Shown: positions 35,384 through 48,525, counted from the first letter of the stretch. The stretch: DNA of 64,000 bases from Chlorobiaceae bacterium (GCA_012972835.1 JABDHK010000004.1:153530-217529), one strand, 5' to 3'. Numbers and translations are program-made. Notes: a model not told the origin generated them from the sequence alone.

Positions 35384-35455
35384 TGCAAAAATTAACGTTA
35401 TTGAAAAACATCGGTTTAAAATAACACCAGTGCTTCTCCTGCTTAAAAAAAATTA

Positions 35456-35992
35456 TCAGTACGGCTGATAGGAAAACTTCTGCCCGCCTACTGTCGCTTC
35501 AGCCATAATCCCAGCCTTCGGCAGAACAAAAACTGCTACACCATTGGAAAAGTCACTGTTGGTAGCCGCCCCCGTAGTAGCCACAATTCCCTCAACTTGA
35601 GCATTCAACTCATAATTACCTTTTTTGAAATTATCAAGCTCTTCCTTGTCCTTGAAGAATATGATTTCCGAAAAAGACTGACCACCAAGCTGCGGACCAA
35701 CATTGATCTGAGTAATAGTTGAATGCCCTACAAGATTATTAAGCTCATAGACATATCCATTACCATGCCCCCCTCCGACAATAAAATATCCTCCCTTGAA
35801 AACATCAGGAAAAACAACATAGCCATAAGCTTTTTCAAAAAAACGATCAAGCAATGGAGCATTCTTCCTGAAAAACTCAACACCAGCCTTCGCATGATCC
35901 TGTTCGGCAGGGTCCCACCCGGCCTTCGCTGTCGAAAAAAACAGTCCCACAATCATAAACGCAAGGATACCCACTCTTATCATCTTCATCAT
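35456..35992 (-). CDS. Secreted SYLF (Ysc84/DUF500) lipid-binding-domain protein
   Basis: Signal peptide (MMKMIRVGILAFMIVGLFFSTAKA), then YVVFPDVFKGGYFIVGGGHGNGYVY...GPQLGGQSFSEIIFF, which fits the SYLF pattern. Confidence 0.65.
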   Translation of the reverse strand: MMKMIRVGILAFMIVGLFFSTAKAGWDPAEQDHAKAGVEFFRKNAPLLDRFFEKAYGYVVFPDVFKGGYFIVGGGHGNGYVYELNNLVGHSTITQINVGPQLGGQSFSEIIFFKDKEELDNFKKGNYELNAQVEGIVATTGAATNSDFSNGVAVFVLPKAGIMAEATVGGQKFSYQPY

Positions 35993-36105
35993 TGGCGCTT
36001 ATTATATTTTTGTTTAATAAAAACCCGACATAAAAAACATGCACTGATATGCAAAAATAATGTACAATATTCACCGCAATAAATCGCCCAACTCCCATTT
36101 GATCT

Positions 36106-37428
36106 TTACTCTCCAGCTTCAAGCTCCCGCTTCAGCGCCTCACGCTCTATTTCAAGACGGCGAATCTCACGGTTAATCCTGTCGAGTTCCTCCGGGCTGC
36201 TGTCTATTTCAAGCCTGAGTCGCGAAGAGGCCTCGTCTATCAGATCGATAGCCTTATCGGGTAGAAAACGATCTGAAATATACCGATTCGACAGCTCAGC
36301 AGCTGCAACGATAGCAGCATCCTTGATACGCACACCATGATGAATCTCGTATTTCTCCTTGAGACCACGCAAAATGGAAACCGTGTCCTCTACACTCGGC
36401 TGATCGACCAGTACGGTCTGAAACCGGCGCTCAAGCGCGGCATCTTTTTCAATATGCTTGCGGTACTCGTCCAGCGTCGTCGCGCCGATACAGCGCAGTT
36501 CCCCTCGAGCAAGCGCAGGTTTGAGAATATTGGCCGCATCCATTGACCCCTCGGCAGAACCCGCTCCAACAAGCAGATGAATTTCATCAATAAAAAGAAT
36601 AATCTCGCCAGCTGACGCCTGAACCTCACGCACAACAGCCTTCAGCCGCTCCTCAAACTCCCCGCGAAACTTCGCTCCGGCAACAAGCTGAGCAATATCA
36701 AGCGCAGCAATCTGCTTGCTCTTCAGGTTTTCAGGAACATCACCAGCTACGATACGCTGCGCAATTCCCTCAACAAGAGCGGTCTTGCCTACCCCGGGAT
36801 CACCAATCAATACCGGATTGTTCTTGGTGCGACGGCTGAGAATCTGCAGCACCCTGCGAATCTCCTCATCACGTCCGATAACCGGATCGAGTTTACCCTT
36901 TCGTGCCTGGTCGTTCAGGTTGCGCGAATATTTTTTCAGCGAATTATAGGTCTCTTCTGCGCTCTGACTGGTCACGCGCTGCGTCCCCCTTATGGTGGTC
37001 AGCACCTTGAGAATGGCTTCGCGGTTAATACCCGCGTCCTTCAGCATACGCGAAACGTTGAGCCCTGCTTCACTCAGCGCAATAAGCAGGTGCTCTGAGC
37101 TGATATAGTCATCTTTCAGCTTTTCAGCCTCTTTCAAGGCCACATCAAAAACCTTTCCGAGGTTCTGCGAAAGATACTGCCCCGTAGCCGACGCGCCTGT
37201 TACCCTTGGAATTCTCTCTATTTCGCGATCAAGTGCCGCAAGCAGGTTTTCTGCAGAAACTTCCAGCTTCTGCGCTATCTGCACCGCAATACTGCTTTTA
37301 TCTTCAAGCATGGCCAAAAGAAGATGTTCCGGCTCTATCTGCTGGTGCTGCCTGCTGCTGGCCAGCGCTGATGCCGACTGTAATGCCTCCTGGGCTTTTA
37401 CCGTAAATTTGTTGGGATCAAACTGCAT
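36106..37428 (-). CDS. clpB: ClpB-type disaggregase, N-terminal half only (N-domain + AAA-1 + start of the M-domain coiled coil)
   Basis: 440 aa with the Clp_N repeats, Walker [14 protein letters not shown], Walker B ILFIDEIH, and sensor [23 protein letters not shown]. The ORF stops in the coiled coil (...[20 protein letters not shown]). No AAA-2 coding sequence is present in the 113 nt before the next gene. Confidence 0.85.
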
Positions 37429-38082: not shown

Positions 38083-39105
38083 TTACCATCGCTTTCCTCC
38101 ACCTCTTCCTGTCATTGTTTCAGCAAGTAGAAAAAAAAGAGCTGCCGCAAGAAAATATTGAGCAAGCGGCACACGCTCTATGGGCTCCATCACCCAGCGC
38201 GATGATGCCGCAATGCGATTAATCTTTTCGGAAATTTCATTATCAGCAGTATGATCCGCCTTACTGCGAAAATAAAAACCGCCCGCTTCATGGGCCAGTT
38301 TCTGCAGTGCCTCACCCCTGAAACTTGTCATCACAGCTTTGCCGCCTTCATCCAGCTTAATCCCTTCTCCACTCCCACCCAACGGAATCTCGACCGGCAA
38401 ATTCATACCAACGCCTACGACAAAAACATGAATCCCCTTCATTTTCATCTTTTTAGCCTCCACCATAAAATCTCCGGCATGATCTTCACCATCACTCAGC
38501 AGAACAACAATTTTCTCACCTTTTATGCCTGATTCCGGATGGCTATCTGTTTCTGGTTTAAGTAGTTTTTCGGAAAGCTCCAGTGCAGAGCGAAAAACAG
38601 TACCCTGCTCCTCAATAAGATCAGGTGAGGCCATGCCAAGCAATGCCTCGAACGCTTCCTGATCAGTAGTGAGAGGACACTGAACGAGAGGAGCAGCCGC
38701 AAAAAGCAGAATAGCTCTCCTTCCTCCATTAACAGTACGACTGATACCGATAATTTCCTGTTTCGCCTGAGCGAGCCGGTCTGGAAGGACATCCCTTGCT
38801 CTCATGCTGCGGGAAACATCAAGCACAAAAACCATATCGGCACCTTTACGCAAGACCGGCCTGCCGCCACTGCTTAGCCGAGGGCCACTCATGGAAAAAA
38901 GTAAAAAGCCAATACCACAGAAGAGCAACACTTTTTTCAGAATGAGAAGCTCAAACCGTGAACCGGGCATTAAGGTATCAGCCATAAGCGGAGTGGCAAC
39001 CATCTCACGCGCATGAAGCTGCCTGATTACCCCATAGCCGAGAATCACAGCAAGAGGAATCAGCAACAACAGGAAGCCAATATTTTCTGGCCATGCAAAA
39101 CTCAT
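38083..39105 (-). CDS. batB: vWA-domain membrane protein, BatB-like
   Basis: Two N-terminal TM helices, a MIDAS motif (VLDVSRSM), a vWA fold and a C-terminal TM helix. It lies directly downstream of a BatA-like paralogue. Confidence 0.8.
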   Translation of the reverse strand: MSFAWPENIGFLLLLIPLAVILGYGVIRQLHAREMVATPLMADTLMPGSRFELLILKKVLLFCGIGFLLFSMSGPRLSSGGRPVLRKGADMVFVLDVSRSMRARDVLPDRLAQAKQEIIGISRTVNGGRRAILLFAAAPLVQCPLTTDQEAFEALLGMASPDLIEEQGTVFRSALELSEKLLKPETDSHPESGIKGEKIVVLLSDGEDHAGDFMVEAKKMKMKGIHVFVVGVGMNLPVEIPLGGSGEGIKLDEGGKAVMTSFRGEALQKLAHEAGGFYFRSKADHTADNEISEKINRIAASSRWVMEPIERVPLAQYFLAAALFFLLAETMTGRGGGKRW

Positions 39106-39135
39106 AGGTGTAATCCAGTCCTATTGGTACTCAGA

Positions 39136-40146
39136 TTAAGGTATCCGGAGAAGCCGGGTATTAGACAACATGATTTCAAGGAAAAGCAACGTTGCCACCA
39201 CAACCAGCAAACGAGTAAACAACTCTGAACGACGTTCCATTACACTCCCTGTAAGCCGTTTTTTTTCCAGCCGGTCTATAGCTCTCATGGTTTCATCAAA
39301 TGCAGCCGGATCCTTCACCCCGAAATACTGACCACCAGTGATTCGTGCAATACCATGAAGCGACTCCTCAGCTAACTCCGAATTAACCCCTTTTTCACTG
39401 GGTAAATCCATTCGATAGCCGGATGTTTTAAAACCAGCGTTAATGGCATATATCCTGATCCCACTCTGCACAGCCAATCCCGCCGCCGTTGCAGGGGCTA
39501 CCTCCCCGGCATTATTTTCACCATCCGTGACAAGAATGATAACCTTGTGCGACGACTCCGATGCTTTCAGCCTGTTGACAGCAATAAGGATCGCCGTACC
39601 AATGGCCGTACCTTCATCCTGAATCACACCTGGGGTGAGGTGGTCGAGCAGCATTGCAAGAACATCATGATCCAGCGTCAACGGACACTGCGTATATCCC
39701 TTTCCCCGGAATACCACCAGTCCAATCCGGTCGTTCGGCCTGTGCATTACAAAGTTGCGGGCAACCTCCCTTGCAACATCAAGACGACTTTCACCGGCAA
39801 AATCCTTCTGCAACATTGATTCGGAAATATCAAGAGCAAGAATGACATCAATACCCATCACTTCAGCTTCCGTCTGACGGTAAAGAAGGTAGGGCCCTGT
39901 CATGGCAATCACCAACAGAAAAAGAGCACTCCACCGCAGCCACTGAGGCAGTAACCGCATGATACGACCAACCGCAAATCCTGCATCACGCAGCCGTTCA
40001 ATACCCGGAAAAAGTATAACCGGAACTTGCCCCAATCGCACACGCCTCTCCCTGAACCACGCCGCCACAATAAGCGCAGGCAACAAAAGCAGCCACCAGG
40101 GCTCTGTCAGCTCAAAGCTGGGTAAACGGGCAAACCACTCCTGCAT
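39136..40146 (-). CDS. batA: vWA-domain membrane protein, BatA-like
   Basis: N-terminal WWLLLLP TM helices, a MIDAS motif (LALDISESM), ...ILVTDGENN, and a C-terminal TM helix. Confidence 0.8.
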   Translation of the reverse strand: MQEWFARLPSFELTEPWWLLLLPALIVAAWFRERRVRLGQVPVILFPGIERLRDAGFAVGRIMRLLPQWLRWSALFLLVIAMTGPYLLYRQTEAEVMGIDVILALDISESMLQKDFAGESRLDVAREVARNFVMHRPNDRIGLVVFRGKGYTQCPLTLDHDVLAMLLDHLTPGVIQDEGTAIGTAILIAVNRLKASESSHKVIILVTDGENNAGEVAPATAAGLAVQSGIRIYAINAGFKTSGYRMDLPSEKGVNSELAEESLHGIARITGGQYFGVKDPAAFDETMRAIDRLEKKRLTGSVMERRSELFTRLLVVVATLLFLEIMLSNTRLLRIP

Positions 40147-40372
40147 AAGCGAAACATTTTACCTCAAAGATGCAAAAACCCCGGCTAAATTCCCCCCTGC
40201 AGAAGAGCGATTGTGAAAGCTCGACATCCCATTGAAGTATTCAAGACAAAACACACATACATTACAATTAGTACCACTCCAATATTTTTTCTAAACTAAC
40301 AACTTTTGTGATGAATTTTTTTTAGTTCAATATCAAGTTGCAGAGAAGCTTGATATTCGGTAAGTGTGGTGA

Positions 40373-41263
40373 TCAATTCGCTGACGTTTCTGAAATTTTG
40401 TTGATGCGTAAAAAAAGATTTACTCCCAATGGTTCGCTTACAACAGTGATATTCTTCTGCTCAATACCAGCCTCTAATGCTAAAACAATAAGTTCCTGCT
40501 TGCTCCTATGATGAAGAAACCATTTCCCAAATAGTTCCATATATTTTCTTGTTGGATTATTATTGGAAAAATTACCAATAACAAGAAGCCCATTTGGCTC
40601 TATATATGCATGCAATCTATTCAATAGAAAAACAAACTTTTTATTATCAAGATAGTCAAAAACACCAGCAGACCATATTATACTATAGTGTTGATCAGGT
40701 TTAAATTTAAATACATTTTTATTAAAAAATCTAATCCTATCTAAATAAGAAATGCATAATTTTGATGCATACTCAATAGCCATTTGATCATAATCAACAC
40801 AATCAAAAATAATATTAGTATACGGATTGTTTTGAAAAAACTCCAACATATCCCTACCTGGGCCACTACCGACATTCAAAACATGAAGTTTTTTATTTAT
40901 TATCTCAGATGAAGCCAATAAATTCAAAAAAAACTCTTTTCTGTTTCTTACAGCTATTGTTGCTTCTTGTGTATGAAAAAATTCATCCCATTTTCGAAAA
41001 TTTTCATTTTCTGACTTTGATTTTATATAGATTCTATCTATAATTTCATAATCACCGGAATAACCATGAGGCTTGTGAAAGGCAAAACCTTGCATTGATT
41101 CCTCAGATAGCGCCGGTAATATAATGTCAAGGAAATCGTGATATTGGATTTCAGAAGATGCTTGTTCCAAGCGGGCACCAATAAGCTCAATAGCAATACG
41201 TAAGGCATGATAATCTGATTGATCGGGACCGTTTTGGTCTACTATCTTTTTTATAAATTCCAA
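40373..41263 (-). CDS. Class I SAM-dependent methyltransferase with a ~120-aa N-terminal extension
   Basis: 296 aa. Motif I is LHVLNVGSGPGRDMLEF, with the post-I acidic residue in FDCVDYD, then IIWSAGVFDYL and NGLLVIGNF. It has a TTG start preceded by AGGAAAGGAG 7 nt upstream. Confidence 0.8.
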   Translation of the reverse strand: MEFIKKIVDQNGPDQSDYHALRIAIELIGARLEQASSEIQYHDFLDIILPALSEESMQGFAFHKPHGYSGDYEIIDRIYIKSKSENENFRKWDEFFHTQEATIAVRNRKEFFLNLLASSEIINKKLHVLNVGSGPGRDMLEFFQNNPYTNIIFDCVDYDQMAIEYASKLCISYLDRIRFFNKNVFKFKPDQHYSIIWSAGVFDYLDNKKFVFLLNRLHAYIEPNGLLVIGNFSNNNPTRKYMELFGKWFLHHRSKQELIVLALEAGIEQKNITVVSEPLGVNLFLRINKISETSAN

Positions 41264-41396
41264 AAGAATACTCCTTTCCTATATTGTGATAACGTAAAAT
41301 TCCATAAAAATTTTCTATGGAGCCCCAATGTTAAATAAAGTTGCTTCCATTGTATCTTGAAGATGCACTGACAATTGCAGAGAATAACCATGTAAT

Positions 41397-43508
41397 TTAT
41401 TTCTGAGCCCTCATCAACTGCCCAATTTTTCTTATAAGTATCTGGTTGTCGACCGGTTTAACAAGGTAATCATTCATTCCTGCCTCAATTGCTTTAAATA
41501 TTTCTTTTTCATCTGATTCACCACTAAGCCCTATAATAGGAATATCCTTCAAACGAATATTTTGATGAGTGCGAATTTGTCGGGTTGTCTCAAGTCCGTC
41601 AATTCCAGGCATCTGAATATCCATCAGAATAAGGTTACAATCAAGGTTATCATCTTGCAGATGTTTAAGTGCCTCTATTCCATTGACCGCTTCAATAACC
41701 TTAAAATGAAATTTTTCAAGCAACCATCGGAGAGAGATCCTGATGACATTTGCATCGTCCACAATCAAAACAGTCATGCTGTGAAATGCATGTTGACCAT
41801 TAAAATATTTTTGATTGAATATCGTAGCCATACTCTTTATCAGCTCAAACTCCTGAACAGGCTTTGTAATAAACCCTTGCATTCCAACTTTTTCTGTTTT
41901 GGCGCGAGCTATATAGGGTGGATCAGCAGAATAGCCTACAATTGGAATGTCAAGGGATAATCCCCCTGCTTTTCCAGTTCTTATTGCTTCAGTTGTTTCA
42001 AAGCCATTCATGACGGGCATGCTCAGGTTCATCAACAGAGCATCATAGTGGTTTTGCTTTACCATCTCTATTGCTTCTTGTCCATCACTTGCTTCGTCTA
42101 TATCAGTTTGAAATGGTTTAAGATAGTTTATCACTAAATTTCTGTCTGAAGGCTTGTCATCAATCACAAGAAGTCGTTTGTCTTGGAAAGCCTCAAGATA
42201 TTCATCGATTATTCTTGTTCTGTATTCTACAATATCTTTCTCATTAACTATAGGAAAAGTCAGCATAAACTCTGTATACTTTCCCAATACTGAATGGCAA
42301 ACAATATCACCTTTGAAAGCTTTCATAACTCTTTTACAGTAAGAAAGACCTAGCCCTGTACCCCCTTTTTTTCCTGAGGTATAATAAGCCTCGAAAAGCT
42401 TTATAAGGTTCTCTGCTGGTATTCCCGGTCCTGTATCCTTGACATAAACCCGGTTATACAAAGCTTCTTTTTGAATGCGAATGGATATCCGTGCATCCGG
42501 ATAGGATTTCATGAAATAAAAAGCATTGATAATCAGATTGAAAAGTACAAAAACATACAATGTCTCATCTGCTTTGATAATAAAGTCTTCATGACACTCC
42601 AATGTTAATTTATGCCGTTCAGAGTCTGACTCGTAACTGTACTCATCAAGTGCTTTTCGGGTAATTGTAAAACAGGAATAATAAGTTAAAATTTGTTGAT
42701 TTATAGTCTGGTTTTTTGTTTCACTGAGTATCATGTCTATAATCTGCGCTCCACGAGCAACAGCCATCTTTCCCTGTGCTACGCATAGATAAACTTGATT
42801 GAGACCTTCGGTAGATAAATGTTTTTGATTCGAATGCTTGATTGGAATTTCAGATAATATCCGATCAAAACTGTATTTTACCTGCGCTAAAGGATTTCGC
42901 ATTTCGTGGGCAATACTCGATGCAAGCATTTGCAATACCGTATTGTTTTCCATAGCAATAACCCCTTTCAGGTTGCTTATACTGAACATAAAGCCAGCCA
43001 GAATGGAAAAAATAGCAACAATAGTATAATGTCCAATATTGAATTTTGGATCGAGAGTCACATAAGGAGGTATCAAGAAAAAAGCTATAAATGCGGCTGC
43101 AGTCCCAATACATAAATCAAACATAAACATGAAAAAATTTGGAACAAATGATATAAGCACAAAAATCATGAAAACTTCCCAAGCTAACCAGGGTTCTTCA
43201 AAATTGTTCTTGAGTGCAAAAAGAGTGATAATGAATGGCAGGACATAAATAAGCATTGTATGCCATAAGATGGCAAAATTCTTTTGGAGAAAATTGGGGG
43301 ATTTAATTTTGAAAAGAACAGCAAGACAGAGCGCTACCCCGATAAGGCGAACAGAAAGATTTTCCCACTTATTATGAAATATATATTTGTAAACAAAATA
43401 CAGCAAAAAATGTCCAGAAGCCCCTATAATAGAACCAACAATTAAATTAAAATTTGAAATCTGGGTTCCTTGACGAAATGAAGATTGTATAAAATTTGTG
43501 ACCTTCAT
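41397..43508 (-). CDS. Hybrid sensor histidine kinase, CqsS/LqsS-like multi-TM sensor domain + HisKA/HATPase + two receiver domains
   Basis: 703 aa.
- Residues ~20-185 form about 6 hydrophobic helices with no periplasmic domain.
- H-box SSIAHEMRNPL (His-201).
- N-box LFNLIINAFYF, G1 VKDTGPGIP, G2 GGTGLGLSY.
- REC1, residues ~445-565, has Asn-494 where the phospho-Asp is expected (LLMNLSMP).
- REC2, residues ~578-700, is canonical (LILMDIQMPGIDG, Asp-630, ...VKP). Confidence 0.85.
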   Translation of the reverse strand: MKVTNFIQSSFRQGTQISNFNLIVGSIIGASGHFLLYFVYKYIFHNKWENLSVRLIGVALCLAVLFKIKSPNFLQKNFAILWHTMLIYVLPFIITLFALKNNFEEPWLAWEVFMIFVLISFVPNFFMFMFDLCIGTAAAFIAFFLIPPYVTLDPKFNIGHYTIVAIFSILAGFMFSISNLKGVIAMENNTVLQMLASSIAHEMRNPLAQVKYSFDRILSEIPIKHSNQKHLSTEGLNQVYLCVAQGKMAVARGAQIIDMILSETKNQTINQQILTYYSCFTITRKALDEYSYESDSERHKLTLECHEDFIIKADETLYVFVLFNLIINAFYFMKSYPDARISIRIQKEALYNRVYVKDTGPGIPAENLIKLFEAYYTSGKKGGTGLGLSYCKRVMKAFKGDIVCHSVLGKYTEFMLTFPIVNEKDIVEYRTRIIDEYLEAFQDKRLLVIDDKPSDRNLVINYLKPFQTDIDEASDGQEAIEMVKQNHYDALLMNLSMPVMNGFETTEAIRTGKAGGLSLDIPIVGYSADPPYIARAKTEKVGMQGFITKPVQEFELIKSMATIFNQKYFNGQHAFHSMTVLIVDDANVIRISLRWLLEKFHFKVIEAVNGIEALKHLQDDNLDCNLILMDIQMPGIDGLETTRQIRTHQNIRLKDIPIIGLSGESDEKEIFKAIEAGMNDYLVKPVDNQILIRKIGQLMRAQK

Positions 43509-43889
43509 ATGCTGAAAATTTATTTTATCTTTGGCACTCTTTTGAATAAATTACCTGATTTATCATAGTTTTTTTCGGTAATTTTTTTAAATAAAGTAAC
43601 AGATATGGCCTATAACGGCTATACCAGAAAAATTACAATATAATTATCCGAATGTGTTAATGAAAGTGATCCAAATACATATAATGCGCCATATATAGCA
43701 TTTTTAGCATCAGTTCTTCATCCTCTAACCGTATCTGCAGAGTACTCATGAAAATCAGCAACAACAACAACTCTTGCATGACGCTGGCACATCAAAATAC
43801 CATTATCTATTGATTGGGGTCTTCTGAAAACATTTCACGCTTTTACCTGAGCATTAGCATTATAGTCATAAACCCAATAAAAAATAACA

Positions 43890-45251
43890 TTGAAAGAAAA
43901 ATTTACAGCGTTTCTTCTTGGTGCGCCCTCCAGCGGTTCCGGGAAAACAACTTTAACGCTTGCTCTCTTGAGGATTCTTGTACAGCGGGGATATTGCGTG
44001 CAACCCTTCAAGTGCGGACCCGATTATCTTGATACTCGCCTGCACTCCATGGCAGCGTCATACGGAGGGAATTTTCCTGCAGGCATTAATCTTGACACCT
44101 TCATGGCATCGGAAGCTCATGCGAAGGAGCTATTCAGCCGATATTCCTGCCGTGCGGATGCATCAGTTGTTGAAGGGGTGATGGGGCTGTTTGACGGTGC
44201 GGAAAAATCACAGGGAAGCAGTGCCGAGATTGCAAAACTACTCGGCATACCTGTTATCATGGTAATCAATGCAAAGAGTATGGCCTATTCAGCGGCTCCG
44301 CTTCTTTTTGGTTTCAGAACATTTGACCCAGATTTGAAACTTGCCGGTGTAATCTTTAATCAGGTCAACACCCCATCGCACTACCGCTACCTTGAAGAGG
44401 CCGCTCTTGATGCAAATGTCGAACCTCTCGGCTACATCCCCCGTAATGAAGCTATTGCAATCAGCGAGCGGCATCTCGGCCTCAATACCTCTCCAGGCTA
44501 CGACCGTGAGAGAGTTATTCAAGATATGGCAGAGCATATTCAAAAAACTGTTGCCATAGACCGCCTTCTTGAACTGACAACAATGGAGCGCCCGGCAATT
44601 CCCGGCAGCTCTGCTTCTAAAACTCTCTTCGGGAAAAAAGATGGAAAAGTCATTGCTGTTGCAAGAGATGAGGCGTTCAACTTTATCTACCAAGAAAATC
44701 TCAACGTGCTCGGAGAGTATGGGCGGATAGAATTTTTCAGCCCGATGGATGATAAGCGTCTTCCAGTCTGCGACCTGCTCTACCTTGCCGGGGGATACCC
44801 TGAACTCTATGCTGAAAAACTCTCCCTGAACTCTGCCATGCGTGAGCAGATCGCAGCCTACTGCCGGAACGGTGGCGCTGCCTATGCAGAGTGTGGCGGA
44901 ATGATGTATCTCGGCACCTCAATGATAAACAACAATGACACTCTCTATCCAATGTGCTGCGTGCTCGATCTGATAACGACCATGCAGCATGCCCGTCTGC
45001 ATCTCGGCTACCGCAAGGTGATTTTTGATACTGATTATGGGTACACCCGGGAACTGCTTGGTCATGAGTTTCACTACTCCCGTATCGACACTCATGGTGA
45101 TCTTGGCAATATCGCATCAGTTACCGATGCGAGAAACGAACAGACAGGAACCGGAATGTTCCGTTACAAGAACACCGTAGCATCCTACATCCATCTCTAC
45201 TGGGGAGAAACAAGAGATTTCCCTGAATTTCTGTTCACAAAAAATTATTAA
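43890..45251 (+). CDS. cbiA: Cobyrinate a,c-diamide synthase
   Basis: 453 aa with the N-terminal P-loop GAPSSGSGKTTLTLALL and a C-terminal glutamine-amidotransferase domain (AECGGMMYLG, HEFHYS). TTG start. Confidence 0.85.
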   Translation: MKEKFTAFLLGAPSSGSGKTTLTLALLRILVQRGYCVQPFKCGPDYLDTRLHSMAASYGGNFPAGINLDTFMASEAHAKELFSRYSCRADASVVEGVMGLFDGAEKSQGSSAEIAKLLGIPVIMVINAKSMAYSAAPLLFGFRTFDPDLKLAGVIFNQVNTPSHYRYLEEAALDANVEPLGYIPRNEAIAISERHLGLNTSPGYDRERVIQDMAEHIQKTVAIDRLLELTTMERPAIPGSSASKTLFGKKDGKVIAVARDEAFNFIYQENLNVLGEYGRIEFFSPMDDKRLPVCDLLYLAGGYPELYAEKLSLNSAMREQIAAYCRNGGAAYAECGGMMYLGTSMINNNDTLYPMCCVLDLITTMQHARLHLGYRKVIFDTDYGYTRELLGHEFHYSRIDTHGDLGNIASVTDARNEQTGTGMFRYKNTVASYIHLYWGETRDFPEFLFTKNY

Positions 45252-45375
45252 TTTTGATATATAGAAAAAATCACCCATCGCGCGGCCTCAACAAATGCGT
45301 AATGATTAATAGAGTACCCCGAAGCCATGCTCTGGGGAATGTTTTTGCTTCCAACCATTAACCAGGAACAACACT

Positions 45376-45582
45376 ATGAAAAAGAATTTTTTTGCCGCTC
45401 TTATTGTAGCTCTTGCCTTGACACCTCTCTTTGGCGGAGTAACCTTTGCAGTGGAGAATCAAGCCTCCGAGACCAAAACAGTTGCGACCACCGAAGTGAA
45501 AGCTGAAACGCCACCTGCAGCCGAAAAAAATGAGTCTAAAACAGATGAGTGCTGCACCGTCGGCGAACTGAAGCCTCTATAA
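45376..45582 (+). CDS. Small secreted protein (68 aa) with a C-terminal Cys-Cys
   Basis: Signal peptide MKKNFFAALIVALALTPLFGGVTFA, then a low-complexity T/E/K/A-rich segment ending ...DECCTVGELKPL. Confidence 0.5.
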   Translation: MKKNFFAALIVALALTPLFGGVTFAVENQASETKTVATTEVKAETPPAAEKNESKTDECCTVGELKPL

Positions 45583-45599
45583 AAAAAACGCTAACGCTG

Positions 45600-45620
45600 C
45601 CGCGAAAGCATTTCGCGGCA
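45600..45620. terminator. Hairpin between convergent genes (probable bidirectional terminator)
   Basis: GCCGCGAAA-GCA-TTTCGCGGC, a 9-bp perfect stem. An A8 run lies 10 nt upstream, which is a U-run for the minus-strand transcript. There is no U-run on the plus side, so it is non-canonical. Confidence 0.45.
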
Positions 45621-45642
45621 AACTGGTAACATTGGAATACGC

Positions 45643-46605
45643 TTACTCCTCGGGGGGAAGGGAAGGTCGGGCGGAACGAATGACCTCTTCGGCTTTGCGT
45701 AACGACTGGCGTGACTCCTCTGCATCAGGACGACTATCGGCAAATTTCACCAGATCAGCCTGCGCAAGGAGGTTCATAATACTTTCAAAACCGGCAACAC
45801 CGAGCTTTTTAAGATCGCGTTCAATCTCCTGCGTTACAGCCTCAAGCGCCCTGATCCTGTAGTGGGTCTCAAGAAAAGAGCGCATGATGTTGCTGAGCTC
45901 TTCGTAGCATTCGGGCGGTGGCATTCCGGCTGAAAGCCTCGAACGAAGTTTGCGAAGCTTTCGCTGTGCAACTTGACCGGGATCAACTTTTTCAGCGCTT
46001 GTACGCACCGATCGCTTCAGAAAAAACAGCAGAAGCAGCACCAGCCCGGCAATTGCGAAAACGCCAAGGATAACGGGCAAAAACAAAAGAAAAGGTAGCA
46101 AAGGCTTGATGGGTGGCTTGATGGGCCTGATCTCACGCATGGTAGAGTCAGTAAGCGCTTTGACCAGAACCAATGTCGATGACCGGTAAGAGTCACGCTT
46201 TATGACCTTTCCTTCGCTGTCGCGAAGCACCACACTGAAGGGGGGAATCAGCAGGCGCCCACTGCCAAATACAGCAAGCTCAAACTCAAAACTCTCTTTC
46301 GCAGTGCCAAGTGAAACAATGGAAGAGGATTGTTTGCGGCTGATCAGTTCGAAGGGCTGCACCGAAAGCGAATCAATACCTTCAAGGGCGACAAGCTCGT
46401 TTGCCGGGTGGCGCACACCAATGATGCAGTGGATACGATCGCCAACAAACACGCTGTCAGGAGCAAGCGTCACCGTTACTCCGGAAACCGCTCCCCAAGC
46501 CGCTACAGGTAATGCGCAAACCGTGAGCATTGGCAACGCAGCAAACAGCACAATAACAAGCCATTTGAGCGAACCGGATGCATACCCTTCAGACCTTCTG
46601 TTCAC
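45643..46605 (-). CDS. Membrane protein of the Bat/MoxR operon (BatD-like N-terminal domain, central TM helix, DUF4381-like tail)
   Basis: 320 aa with a signal/TM at the N-terminus and a central TM helix (LLPFLLFLPVILGVFAIAGLVLLLLFF). It overlaps the DUF58 gene by 17 nt. The family call is tentative. Confidence 0.55.
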   Translation of the reverse strand: MNRRSEGYASGSLKWLVIVLFAALPMLTVCALPVAAWGAVSGVTVTLAPDSVFVGDRIHCIIGVRHPANELVALEGIDSLSVQPFELISRKQSSSIVSLGTAKESFEFELAVFGSGRLLIPPFSVVLRDSEGKVIKRDSYRSSTLVLVKALTDSTMREIRPIKPPIKPLLPFLLFLPVILGVFAIAGLVLLLLFFLKRSVRTSAEKVDPGQVAQRKLRKLRSRLSAGMPPPECYEELSNIMRSFLETHYRIRALEAVTQEIERDLKKLGVAGFESIMNLLAQADLVKFADSRPDAEESRQSLRKAEEVIRSARPSLPPEE

Positions 46606-47515
46606 GGTACCGGAAAAAAGAGTTCAGGTCGCCTATGAACGAACGGTCAGTATCAAGAAAAACCGTATCAATACGCATGCGCCGGAGACGCTGACGAAGC
46701 TCCTCATGCTGTCTTGACTGCTCCTGGCGGTAACGGGCTACTTCCGTGCGACTTCCGGCATCAACGGTTATGCGCAATCCAGTTTCAGGTTCTTCAAGAT
46801 CAAGCATGGCGCTGAGAGGAAGTGCTTTATCGAGCGGATCGCTGATGTGCACCAGAATAACATCGTGGCGGGTATTAAGTTGCTTCATCCCTTTTTCATA
46901 ATCACTGGCCACCAGATCAGTCATAAAAAAAATAATTGCATGTCTCCTGAGAGTATAGCGTATAAAAGAGAGCGCTGCATTGATATCGGTCTTCCTGTTC
47001 TGTGGTTTGAGACGGAAGAGCTCTTCAAGAATAACCAGCACATGCTGCCTTCCTTTTCTGGGAGCAATAAAGGTTTCAACCTGATCAGTAAATACCAGAA
47101 GCCCAACCTTGTCATTATTCTGGATGGCGCTGAAGGCAAGCACGGCGCTGACTTCCAGAGCAAGTTCCTTTTTGCGGCGCTGTTGACTGCCAAAAAGCAT
47201 CGAAGCCGATCCATCAACCACAAGCAGCAGTGTCCTCTCCCGCTCTTCGGTAAAAAGTTTGACATACAATTCGTATTTGCGAGCGGAAGTATTCCAGTCA
47301 ATAGAGCGGACATCATCACCATACTGGTATTCACGGACATGGCTGAACTCAATCCCTTTTCCCTTGAATGAGGAGCGGTATTCCCCACTGAACAGCTCAC
47401 TGGCCATTCGTTTTGAGCGAATTTCAACCCGCCTTATGATTCTCTGAAGCTCTTTCAGATACTCTTCACTCTTTTCCATTACAAGACTCCAATACTTTTT
47501 CAAGCTCAATACCAC
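46589..47515 (-). CDS. DUF58-family protein (MoxR-associated, vWA-like)
   Basis: EFSHVREYQYGDDVRSIDWNTSAR is the hallmark DUF58 motif. It lies immediately downstream of moxR. Confidence 0.85.
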   Translation of the reverse strand: MVLSLKKYWSLVMEKSEEYLKELQRIIRRVEIRSKRMASELFSGEYRSSFKGKGIEFSHVREYQYGDDVRSIDWNTSARKYELYVKLFTEERERTLLLVVDGSASMLFGSQQRRKKELALEVSAVLAFSAIQNNDKVGLLVFTDQVETFIAPRKGRQHVLVILEELFRLKPQNRKTDINAALSFIRYTLRRHAIIFFMTDLVASDYEKGMKQLNTRHDVILVHISDPLDKALPLSAMLDLEEPETGLRITVDAGSRTEVARYRQEQSRQHEELRQRLRRMRIDTVFLDTDRSFIGDLNSFFRYREQKV

Positions 47516-47526
47516 AGAGTTCGATC

Positions 47527-48525
47527 TTACGGAACCTGTACATGCTGCAGAATCTGACGGATAATATCATCCGATCGTATATTGTCGGCTTCAGCTTCAT
47601 ACCCAGGCCTTATACGGTGCCGGAGGGTATCGTAGGCAATGGCCTTCACATCTTCAGGGGTTATGTACGCCCGGTGCTGCAGAAAAGCGTGGGCTTTGGA
47701 TGCAAGAAGAAGAAATATTGAGGCCCTTGGAGATGCACCAAATTCAATCATAGTTTCAAGAGAGGCAATACCATACTGTGCAGGTTTTCTGCTTGCTACA
47801 ACCAGATCGACAATGTAGCGCTGCACCCTTGGGTCAACATAGATAAGATCAATCAAGGCTCTCGCCTTTGCAATATCAACAGGCTGCACGACAGGTTGAA
47901 CTGGAGCAGCACTGGCGTTGGTGGCAGATTTAAGCATGATCTCAAGCTCTTCATCGTATGAGGGATAATCGACAATAACCTTCATCATAAACCGGTCTAT
48001 CTGCGCTTCCGGCAGAATGTAGGTTCCTTCATGCTCAATTGGATTCTGTGTAGCCAGCACCATAAAGGGCTCCTGCAGGGGAAAAGTTTGTGTGCCGATC
48101 GTTACCTGACGCTCCTGCATGGCCTCAAGCAGAGCTGACTGCACTTTGGCAGGTGAACGGTTGATTTCATCAGCAAGAATAACATTAGCAAAAACCGGGC
48201 CTTTGCGTGGATAGAACTCCATATCTTTTGGATTGTAGATCATCGTACCAATAAGATCGGCCGGAAGCATATCAGGTGTAAACTGGATTCGCTGAAACTT
48301 CAGGTTCATTGCTGCAGCAAAGGTCCTGATAATGAGTGTTTTGGCAAGTCCCGGCACACCCTCAAGCAATATGTGACCGTTAACCAGCATCGCGATAAAG
48401 ATCCGCCGGATAACATCATGCTGGCCTATAACCCGACGGGAAAGCTGTTCCTCTGCCTTTTCAATAAAACGTGAGGCCTCCGTAATCTGCATTCCAAGTT
48501 CCTCAAGTTCAACTGCATGCTGCAT
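47527..48525 (-). CDS. moxR: MoxR-family AAA+ ATPase
   Basis: 332 aa with Walker A LLEGVPGLAKT and Walker B ILADEINR, plus ...ATQNPIEHEGTYILPEAQIDRF. Confidence 0.93.
   Translation of the reverse strand: MQHAVELEELGMQITEASRFIEKAEEQLSRRVIGQHDVIRRIFIAMLVNGHILLEGVPGLAKTLIIRTFAAAMNLKFQRIQFTPDMLPADLIGTMIYNPKDMEFYPRKGPVFANVILADEINRSPAKVQSALLEAMQERQVTIGTQTFPLQEPFMVLATQNPIEHEGTYILPEAQIDRFMMKVIVDYPSYDEELEIMLKSATNASAAPVQPVVQPVDIAKARALIDLIYVDPRVQRYIVDLVVASRKPAQYGIASLETMIEFGASPRASIFLLLASKAHAFLQHRAYITPEDVKAIAYDTLRHRIRPGYEAEADNIRSDDIIRQILQHVQVP

Follow-up and report, generated by a model that had tools for sequence, protein, structure and literature searches.

The window analysed here is a stretch of 64,000 nucleotides from a Chlorobiaceae bacterium (GCA_012972835.1, JABDHK010000004.1:153530-217529), and an AT-rich islet within it (positions 40147-43889, counted from the window's first letter) holds two genes on the minus strand. 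The first encodes a CqsS-family hybrid sensor histidine kinase of 703 residues (41397..43508), identified from its open reading frame (ORF), Pfam matches and BLASTP against Vibrio cholerae CqsS, and the second encodes a short PhcB-family class-I S-adenosylmethionine (SAM)-dependent methyltransferase (MT) of 296 residues with a TTG start (40373..41263), identified from its ORF, Pfam and hhalign, which is a candidate signal synthase. An earlier reading of this DNA, made without database searches (the sequence-only reading), had described two co-oriented genes separated by 133 nt, and the ORF list shows its coordinates to be exact. The spacer (41264..41396, minus strand) contains no minus-strand terminator-like site, and the two genes are probably co-transcribed. 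Taking the evidence together, we lean towards the islet being a self-contained two-gene signalling cassette that combines a predicted Phc-type synthase with a Cqs-type receptor; that the pair functions as synthase and receptor is a prediction from sequence.

The sensor domain of the kinase (residues 1-195; 42924..43508, minus strand) was delimited by hydropathy, AlphaFold2 modelling and hhalign, and consists of an N-terminal helix and six transmembrane (TM) helices. Hydropathy places six hydrophobic segments in residues 22-180, and in the AlphaFold2 model (pLDDT 91.9) six TM helices come after a short N-terminal helix, with the sixth TM helix (158-194) continuous with the H-box SSIAHEMRNPL. 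The two approaches also agree that a periplasmic domain is absent, as the sequence-only reading had proposed when it described about six TM helices feeding the H-box. The predicted phospho-accepting histidine, His201 (codon 42906..42908, minus strand), lies in a column that is His in 64 of 65 aligned relatives, and the H-box aligns with that of CqsS, the string IAHEMRNPL being common to both. Pfam finds a HATPase_c catalytic domain at residues 314-420 (42249..42569, minus strand; E 3.2e-19) and a weak HisKA match, while the top NCBIfam match of the protein is the cytoplasmic part of LuxN. Its earlier description as a hybrid kinase holds, as Pfam detects both HATPase_c and receiver, but the receiver domains number two, and the first has Asn494 at the acceptor position. 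This first receiver-like domain (residues 443-565; 41814..42182, minus strand) is matched by Pfam Response_reg and by PDB receiver domains over the same residues; the acceptor column reads Asn in 41, Asp in 16 and Glu in 8 of the 65 relatives, and the domain is probably a pseudo-receiver in which Asn494 replaces the acceptor Asp. The stretch of V. cholerae CqsS that matches it aligns weakly and with gaps. The second receiver domain (residues 577-700; 41409..41780, minus strand; Pfam Response_reg 580-695) has the acceptor Asp630, which is present in 65/65 relatives, and aligns with the receiver domain of CqsS.

The resemblance of the sensor to CqsS, which the sequence-only reading had proposed, is borne out by alignment. 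The sensor profile matches residues 1-200 of V. cholerae CqsS with an hhalign probability of 99.8 % (E 2.2e-30, 184 columns), and in BLASTP the kinase and CqsS are collinear, with 28 % identity over residues 16-696 and 13-683, respectively (E 3e-83). The CqsS query sequence was verified by exact look-up and is so named on at least 1000 contigs. These alignments show the kinase to be a true homologue of CqsS along its whole length. In an exhaustive HMMER search, the 195-residue sensor matched 274 cluster representatives at E<=1e-3, several of which carry the JGI name CqsS; word-indexed protein searches, run with the single sequence and with a 31-sequence profile, gave 3 matches each, as TM-helix words probably swamp the index. 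A 193-residue 'stand-alone sensor' (P0001) was rejected because it is truncated by a contig end. A PhcS-like identity for the sensor was also rejected, the probability being 0.5 % against the PhcS-like kinase of the Paraburkholderia locus L083 described below. The PDB yielded no solved CqsS or LqsS membrane domain for comparison by sequence or fold, and the best fold match of the sensor, the TM region of ImcA, is not significant (E 0.2).

The partner gene encodes a 296-residue class-I methyltransferase, in agreement with the sequence-only reading: Pfam Methyltransf_12, Methyltransf_25 and Methyltransf_31 score above their cut-offs, the class-I SAM fold begins at about residue 125, the glycine-rich SAM motif LNxGSGPGRD and D154/D159 are invariant in the family alignment, and strands and helices alternate from residue 127 in the AlphaFold2 model (pLDDT 91.7). 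Some gene callers give a protein of 240 residues; we favour the 296-residue reading from the TTG start because residues 1-56 are conserved in homologues (MEFIKK..GP, with G12 and P13 invariant). There are 864 homologues spanning the full 296 residues, with identities of 56-77 % in Chlorobiaceae and about 45 % in other phyla. The helical N-terminal domain (residues 1-122; 40898..41263, minus strand), modelled confidently as helices H2-H122, carries the motifs KPHGYxGDxExID and WDxFFH..AxxAVRNRK as invariant columns. This region of about 120 residues had been called uncharacterised, a description that needs correcting, as residues 47-122 are common to PhcB-like proteins and align with residues 202-281 of the PhcB-like protein of L083.

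Two lines of evidence connect the MT to PhcB. Many of its homologues bear the JGI name 'extracellular factor (EF) 3-hydroxypalmitic acid methyl ester biosynthesis protein', the KO name of PhcB, and these include Chlorobiaceae homologues that are 56-70 % identical to the MT. Additionally, a tblastn search of plasmids found a 468-residue MT on Paraburkholderia graminis pPHS1_P (L083), as the first gene of an operon that continues with a histidine kinase of 445 residues and two response regulators; six hydrophobic segments were found in this kinase, whose H-box His, residue 233, is close to His230 of the published PhcS (PMC11960443). The family profile of the window MT matches residues 202-462 of the Paraburkholderia protein (hhalign 99.8 %, E 1.6e-27, 237 columns), and the match takes in KPxGYxGD, AxRNR, GLFDY and NPxRxxME, all of which lie outside the generic SAM fold. 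The Phc methyltransferase of Ralstonia had previously been offered as an analogy, not as demonstrated homology; on the names and the profile match, the relationship of the MT to the PhcB-type signal synthases is one of homology. PhcB reportedly makes methyl 3-hydroxymyristate or methyl 3-hydroxypalmitate as signal (PMC8578825, PMC11960443).

The kinase and MT genes lie side by side on one strand at nine or more Chlorobiaceae loci, namely the window, L002-L005, L026, L084, L087 and L093. Five of the 80 genome loci closest to the MT query carry Chlorobiaceae or Chlorobi names and have an adjacent kinase with the same sensor (L002-L005, L026), and the adjacent pair is also found in the Prosthecochloris-type contigs L084-86, in L087-89 and in the metagenome contig L093. 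The gap between the genes is 29-295 nt, with both on the same strand, in the relatives measured. The kinase precedes the MT in the window, L002-L004 and L084, and follows it in L005, L026 and L087. The flanks are a bio operon and ahpC, a MacB-type ABC transporter and trehalase, aroC and hemB, or, in the window, a split MoxR/Bat operon, and the G+C content of the pair is below that of its flanks in 9/9 Chlorobiaceae-type loci, by 0.035-0.13. The linkage of the MT to such kinases, which had been suggested from the window, is thus conserved across varied flanks and both gene orders.

The sensor domains of nine distinct MT-linked kinases are monophyletic among 64 relatives, with a bootstrap of 184/200, whereas the cytoplasmic parts of the same kinases are monophyletic in 0/200 bootstraps; both trees are simple distance trees built by neighbour-joining. 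This indicates that the ligand-binding part of the kinase follows the MT and that the remainder does not. Identity of the window sensor is 53-68 % with the sensors of MT-linked kinases and no higher than 56 % with the rest, and eight positions in TM1-TM3 are diagnostic of the MT-linked clade (39, 48, 52, 58, 63, 85, 88 and 94 in window numbering), with position 52 being Ser in the window kinase and Pro in the other members. It is possible that the two genes were simply co-transferred and are not synthase and receptor, such that the kinase senses an environmental, host or neighbour lipid and the MT is unrelated or co-regulated. This would sit well with the absence of the synthase-like genes sought beside 27 of 72 close kinase paralogues (described below), with the MT loci that have no sensor next to them, about half of the total, and with the roles of both genes being predicted ones; however, the adjacency survives both gene orders and relocation at the nine or more loci, and the sensor clade tracks the MT while the rest of the kinase does not. 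We therefore consider co-transfer of this kind a rather unlikely explanation.

The MT family also has sensor partners in other phyla. Among the 80 MT loci, 27 have a PhcS-type multi-TM sensor protein <=400 bp away, and the partners include hybrid kinases (Desulfobacterales, Bacteroidales), PAS-GGDEF proteins (Smithella) and GGDEF proteins (Cocleimonas). Loci of this type are L015, L018, L029-L031, L036, L038-L040, L044, L046-L048, L052, L054, L056, L071, L076, L077 and others, with Spirochaetaceae also among the hosts. The partners have TM domains that share homology with one another (probability 97-100 %) as well as with the PhcS-like sensor (96.2 %, E 2e-9), and the PhcS-type TM profile is not homologous to the CqsS-type sensor profile (probability 29 %). 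One locus of a Syntrophaceae metagenome-assembled genome (L062:7886-10873) contains a single 995-residue ORF made up of a PhcS-type TM sensor, two PAS domains, a GGDEF domain and a PhcB-like MT, the parts of which are two adjacent genes in Smithella; the ORF could be a genuine fusion, or a stop codon could have been lost in assembly. The phc cluster has been described as restricted to Betaproteobacteria (PMC10653808). Our literature search found nothing relevant on PhcB with Chlorobi or with other phyla, and no description of modules of a short PhcB-like MT with a PhcS-type sensor in other phyla.

The range of these partners bears on whether the MT acts on a protein. An enzyme that modifies the receptor or another pathway protein, in the manner of CheR-type adaptation and with no ligand made, would likewise be expected to go with a membrane sensor whatever its output domain, and even to be fused to one as in L062. 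The MT does have a CheR match, which is weak and below the cut-off (Pfam E 2e-4, 21.3 bits against a cut-off of 27 bits; PDB CheR E 0.003), but the similarity is confined to the common SAM-binding core. The solved folds nearest to the MT model are instead an uncharacterised Bordetella protein (3ocj, TM-score 0.67) and small-molecule O-, C- and N-methyltransferases, with PDB methyltransferase folds matching the model at E 1e-12 to 1e-9; by sequence, the PDB matches show generic class-I similarity only. Furthermore, the characterised member of the family makes a small molecule (PMC8578825), and the partnership of the MT spans PhcS-type and CqsS-type sensors that have no detectable similarity, which a diffusible product explains more easily than would a specific relationship between enzyme and protein substrate. 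Protein modification therefore seems very improbable.

The close subfamily of the sensor was sampled in metagenomes by a scan with a single motif, which yielded 72 kinase genes at 65 loci. Directly 3' of an amine-oxidase gene stand 41 of these kinases, in most loci with an AfsA-hotdog gene preceding the oxidase; a further 3 precede an AfsA gene, and a BioF/CqsA-like neighbour was found for 0 of the 72. The arrangement of an AfsA-type hotdog protein, a flavin amine oxidase and a CqsS-type hybrid kinase forms a conserved operon (L004:11512-15922; L090-L154, e.g. L092:2684-7115), which is often followed by a gene for a protein of about 250 residues whose family is unassigned. This operon may produce a butenolide- or butyrolactone-like signal that is read by the CqsS-type receptor; our literature search found no paper mentioning both AfsA and CqsS. 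At L090:4995-9852, L094 and L107 the order is kinase 1, AfsA, amine oxidase, kinase 2, with no MT at the place where L004 and L093 have one, and tblastn detected no MT remnants in the three loci. The kinase-1 sensors of these loci are sister to the MT-linked clade.

This neighbourhood raises the possibility that the MT is a tailoring or quenching enzyme acting on a signal made by AfsA and amine oxidase, or by CqsA, with the kinase sensing the modified or the unmodified molecule. The order kinase 1-MT-AfsA-amine oxidase-kinase 2 in L004 and in L093/L109 sets the MT beside another candidate synthase operon, and the closest sensor relatives mostly follow AfsA and amine-oxidase genes. As the sequence-only reading had stated, cqsA/cqsS pairs are reported in Chlorobiaceae (PMC5289986, PMC10158934), and the same genome might hold one. 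Against this, no AfsA, amine-oxidase or CqsA-like gene lies near the pair in the window, L002, L003, L084 or L087, tblastn finds no AfsA remnant in the islet, and the MT family in other phyla pairs with sensors that lack all three of these beside them. Moreover, PhcB, the relative with a characterised function, is itself a signal synthase (PMC8578825). On balance, we judge a tailoring or quenching role to be unlikely. The entire 64-kb window lacks BioF/CqsA-like and AfsA-like genes, and it holds no further kinase gene.

A further non-CqsA candidate synthase appears on Paraburkholderia caribensis plasmid 2 (NZ_CP013105.1; L082:4921-8562), where a KASIII-like (FabH-family) gene lies directly upstream of an 858-residue hybrid kinase whose sensor is CqsS-type (hhalign probability 100 %). 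With CqsA, the MT, AfsA plus amine oxidase, and KASIII all seen or reported beside CqsS-type sensors, this sensor appears with several candidate synthases. A bioF gene near the Prosthecochloris pair was tried as a cqsA candidate and rejected, as it sits inside a complete bioB-bioF-bioG-bioC-bioD-bioA operon (L084:639-7379). This bioF is an Aminotran_1_2 gene, and surveys for aminotransferases near CqsS could mistake it for cqsA.

Several of these observations weigh against reading the window pair as a synthase with its receptor. In the close sensor subfamily, AfsA plus amine oxidase (41/72) or no synthase-like gene of the kinds sought (27/72) is the usual context, and an MT is found in 1/72. 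The MT of L004 and L093 stands between kinase 1 and the AfsA-amine oxidase-kinase 2 module, so it could serve the AfsA pathway instead, and a cqsA gene might be present elsewhere in the host genome, beyond the 64-kb window. Of the 80 MT loci, about half lack a sensor next to the MT. The MT is without the N-terminal part of about 200 residues found in PhcB-like proteins, and its substrate and regulation may consequently differ from theirs; the link to PhcB itself runs through the Paraburkholderia phc-like operon and the JGI names. Finally, a receiver query found no Hpt or response regulator partner in the 64-kb window.

Weighing these points, we still prefer the reading of the pair as a Phc-type synthase with a Cqs-type receptor, a combination of PhcB-type methyltransferase and CqsS-type kinase that our literature search did not find described. 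We hypothesize that the cytoplasmic MT would transfer a methyl group from SAM to a small lipophilic metabolite and, by analogy with PhcB, most likely to the carboxyl group of a (3-hydroxy) fatty acid. The resulting methyl ester would be volatile and membrane-permeant and would accumulate with cell density. This product may then be bound within the six-helix membrane domain of the adjacent kinase, where it would switch the protein between kinase and phosphatase modes, as in CqsS, and so change the flow of phosphate from His201 to Asp630, to an Hpt protein and on to a response regulator. That the MT makes the ligand of the kinase, what the ligand is chemically and in which direction it throws the switch are all points that we infer. 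As the neighbour is a SAM methyltransferase and no BioF/CqsA-like gene is nearby, the ligand is not expected to be a CqsA-made alpha-hydroxyketone. CAI-1 is (S)-3-hydroxytridecan-4-one (PMC3285556), and adaptation of the pocket from CAI-1 to methyl 3-hydroxyalkanoates would be plausible from the structures, as both have a small polar head and a long alkyl tail. No homologues of PhcR, PhcQ or PhcA lie near the window pair, and the 64-kb window has no receiver-domain ORF other than the kinase. The broader proposal, that green sulfur bacteria carry an unrecognised cell-cell signalling system in which a Phc-type synthase has recombined with a Cqs-type receptor, is one we put forward tentatively, as a possibility that falls a little short of even.

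The base composition of the islet differs from that of its surroundings, with a G+C content of 0.27-0.39 within 40200-43800 and of 0.46-0.53 in the flanks (400-nt windows). The reference for individual genes is the 55 other genes of the window (GC 0.469 ± 0.026; G+C at third codon positions, GC3, 0.445 ± 0.046), against which the MT gene has a GC of 0.316 (z -5.9) and a GC3 of 0.239 (z -4.5), and the kinase gene a GC of 0.361 (z -4.2) and a GC3 of 0.320 (z -2.7). The deviation reported earlier is real and far beyond gene-to-gene scatter, although the figures given for it, about 30 % inside and 50-55 % outside, were slightly exaggerated. The suggestion that the pair was acquired laterally stands in part: composition and the varying contexts favour it, but no insertion signatures were found. 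There are no repeats pairing the islet edges, no tRNA target at the islet (the sole tRNA is 26 kb away) and no integrase or transposase genes adjacent to it; no empty site was seen either, as every contig read with the exact flanking proteins has the islet too. On composition and changing contexts only, we infer that the pair was laterally acquired.

The region 5' of the kinase gene (43509..43889) is AT-rich, is common to the divergent cbiA-like gene and is presumed to be the promoter region. It contains weak promoter-like matches only, the islet as a whole having no more of these than shuffled sequence, and no Rfam match. At the other end, the intergenic region from the MT stop codon to a VWA (BatA-like) gene (40147..40372) forms the lower edge of the low-GC islet, with G+C climbing from 0.34 to 0.51 across it. 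The islet is flanked by this VWA gene (39136-40146) and, on its other side, by the cbiA-like gene (43890-45251, plus strand), which has normal G+C. A Bat-like set of MoxR, DUF58 and VWA genes is split within the window (38083-48525). One part comprises MoxR (47527-48525), DUF58 (46589-47515) and a gene for a 320-residue protein (45643-46605), and the other comprises the VWA genes at 39136-40146 and 38083-39105; a small plus-strand ORF, the cbiA-like gene and the islet lie between the two. Further along, a ClpB-like ORF (36106-37428) encodes just 440 residues (Clp_N and the first AAA module) and stops in the coiled-coil region. The DNA beside it is lower in G+C (0.42 at 35400-36200), and clpB may be truncated or split at this place.

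Synthase/receptor families are commonly regarded as fixed in quorum sensing. The window pair stably joins a predicted synthase from one such family to a receptor from another, and the ligand-binding domain is co-inherited with the enzyme. If our reading is correct, synthases and membrane receptors would be swappable as modules and CqsS-type receptors could evolve to recognise chemically different lipids; the six-TM sensor of the CqsS type would act as a receptor module that reads lipid-like signals and has at least four kinds of synthase as partners, none related to the others (a PhcB-like methyltransferase, a KASIII-like enzyme, CqsA, and AfsA with amine oxidase), and modules of PhcB-like methyltransferase and PhcS-type sensor would be widespread well beyond Betaproteobacteria. 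A comparative study lists CAI-1 as the only quorum-sensing system for green sulfur bacteria (PMC10158934). As cqsA-like neighbours were found for 0/72 close kinase relatives, our results suggest that alpha-hydroxyketone signalling is over-called when a CqsS-like kinase is taken to mean CAI-1 signalling. With one 296-residue enzyme and one receptor, the cassette offers a cheap and concrete experimental entry to green sulfur bacteria.

Among known systems, the kinase most resembles V. cholerae CqsS, the receptor of the CAI-1 signal, with which it shares a six-TM sensor that has no periplasmic domain and a collinear arrangement from the first TM helix to the C-terminal receiver. CqsS Trp104 and Phe162 align with identical residues in the window kinase, while Ser107 aligns with Trp. 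Cys170, which sets the ligand tail length in CqsS (PMC3285556), aligns with Phe, as it does in V. harveyi CqsS (PMC3285556). The neighbouring gene, however, encodes a SAM methyltransferase and not the pyridoxal phosphate-dependent CqsA/LqsA synthase of CqsA/CqsS and LqsA/LqsS/LqsT, and the host, unlike those of the Vibrio and Legionella systems, is not a proteobacterium. The AfsA-amine oxidase-kinase operons have kinases of the same subfamily (sensors 40-58 % identical) that also carry two receivers, but in place of a methyltransferase they have, as putative synthases, a flavin amine oxidase and a hotdog protein of the A-factor type, and their sensors fall outside the MT-linked clade. Modules of PhcB-like MT and PhcS-type sensor share the MT family with the window pair (42-52 % identity) and likewise have adjacent genes on the same strand; they differ in that their sensor is PhcS-type, not CqsS-type, with histidine kinase or GGDEF outputs. 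From the Phc system itself the window pair is set apart by the length of its MT (296 residues against 468 in the PhcB-like protein) and by a sensor unrelated to the PhcS-like one, yet the two are alike in placing a methyltransferase gene beside the gene for a multi-TM histidine kinase.

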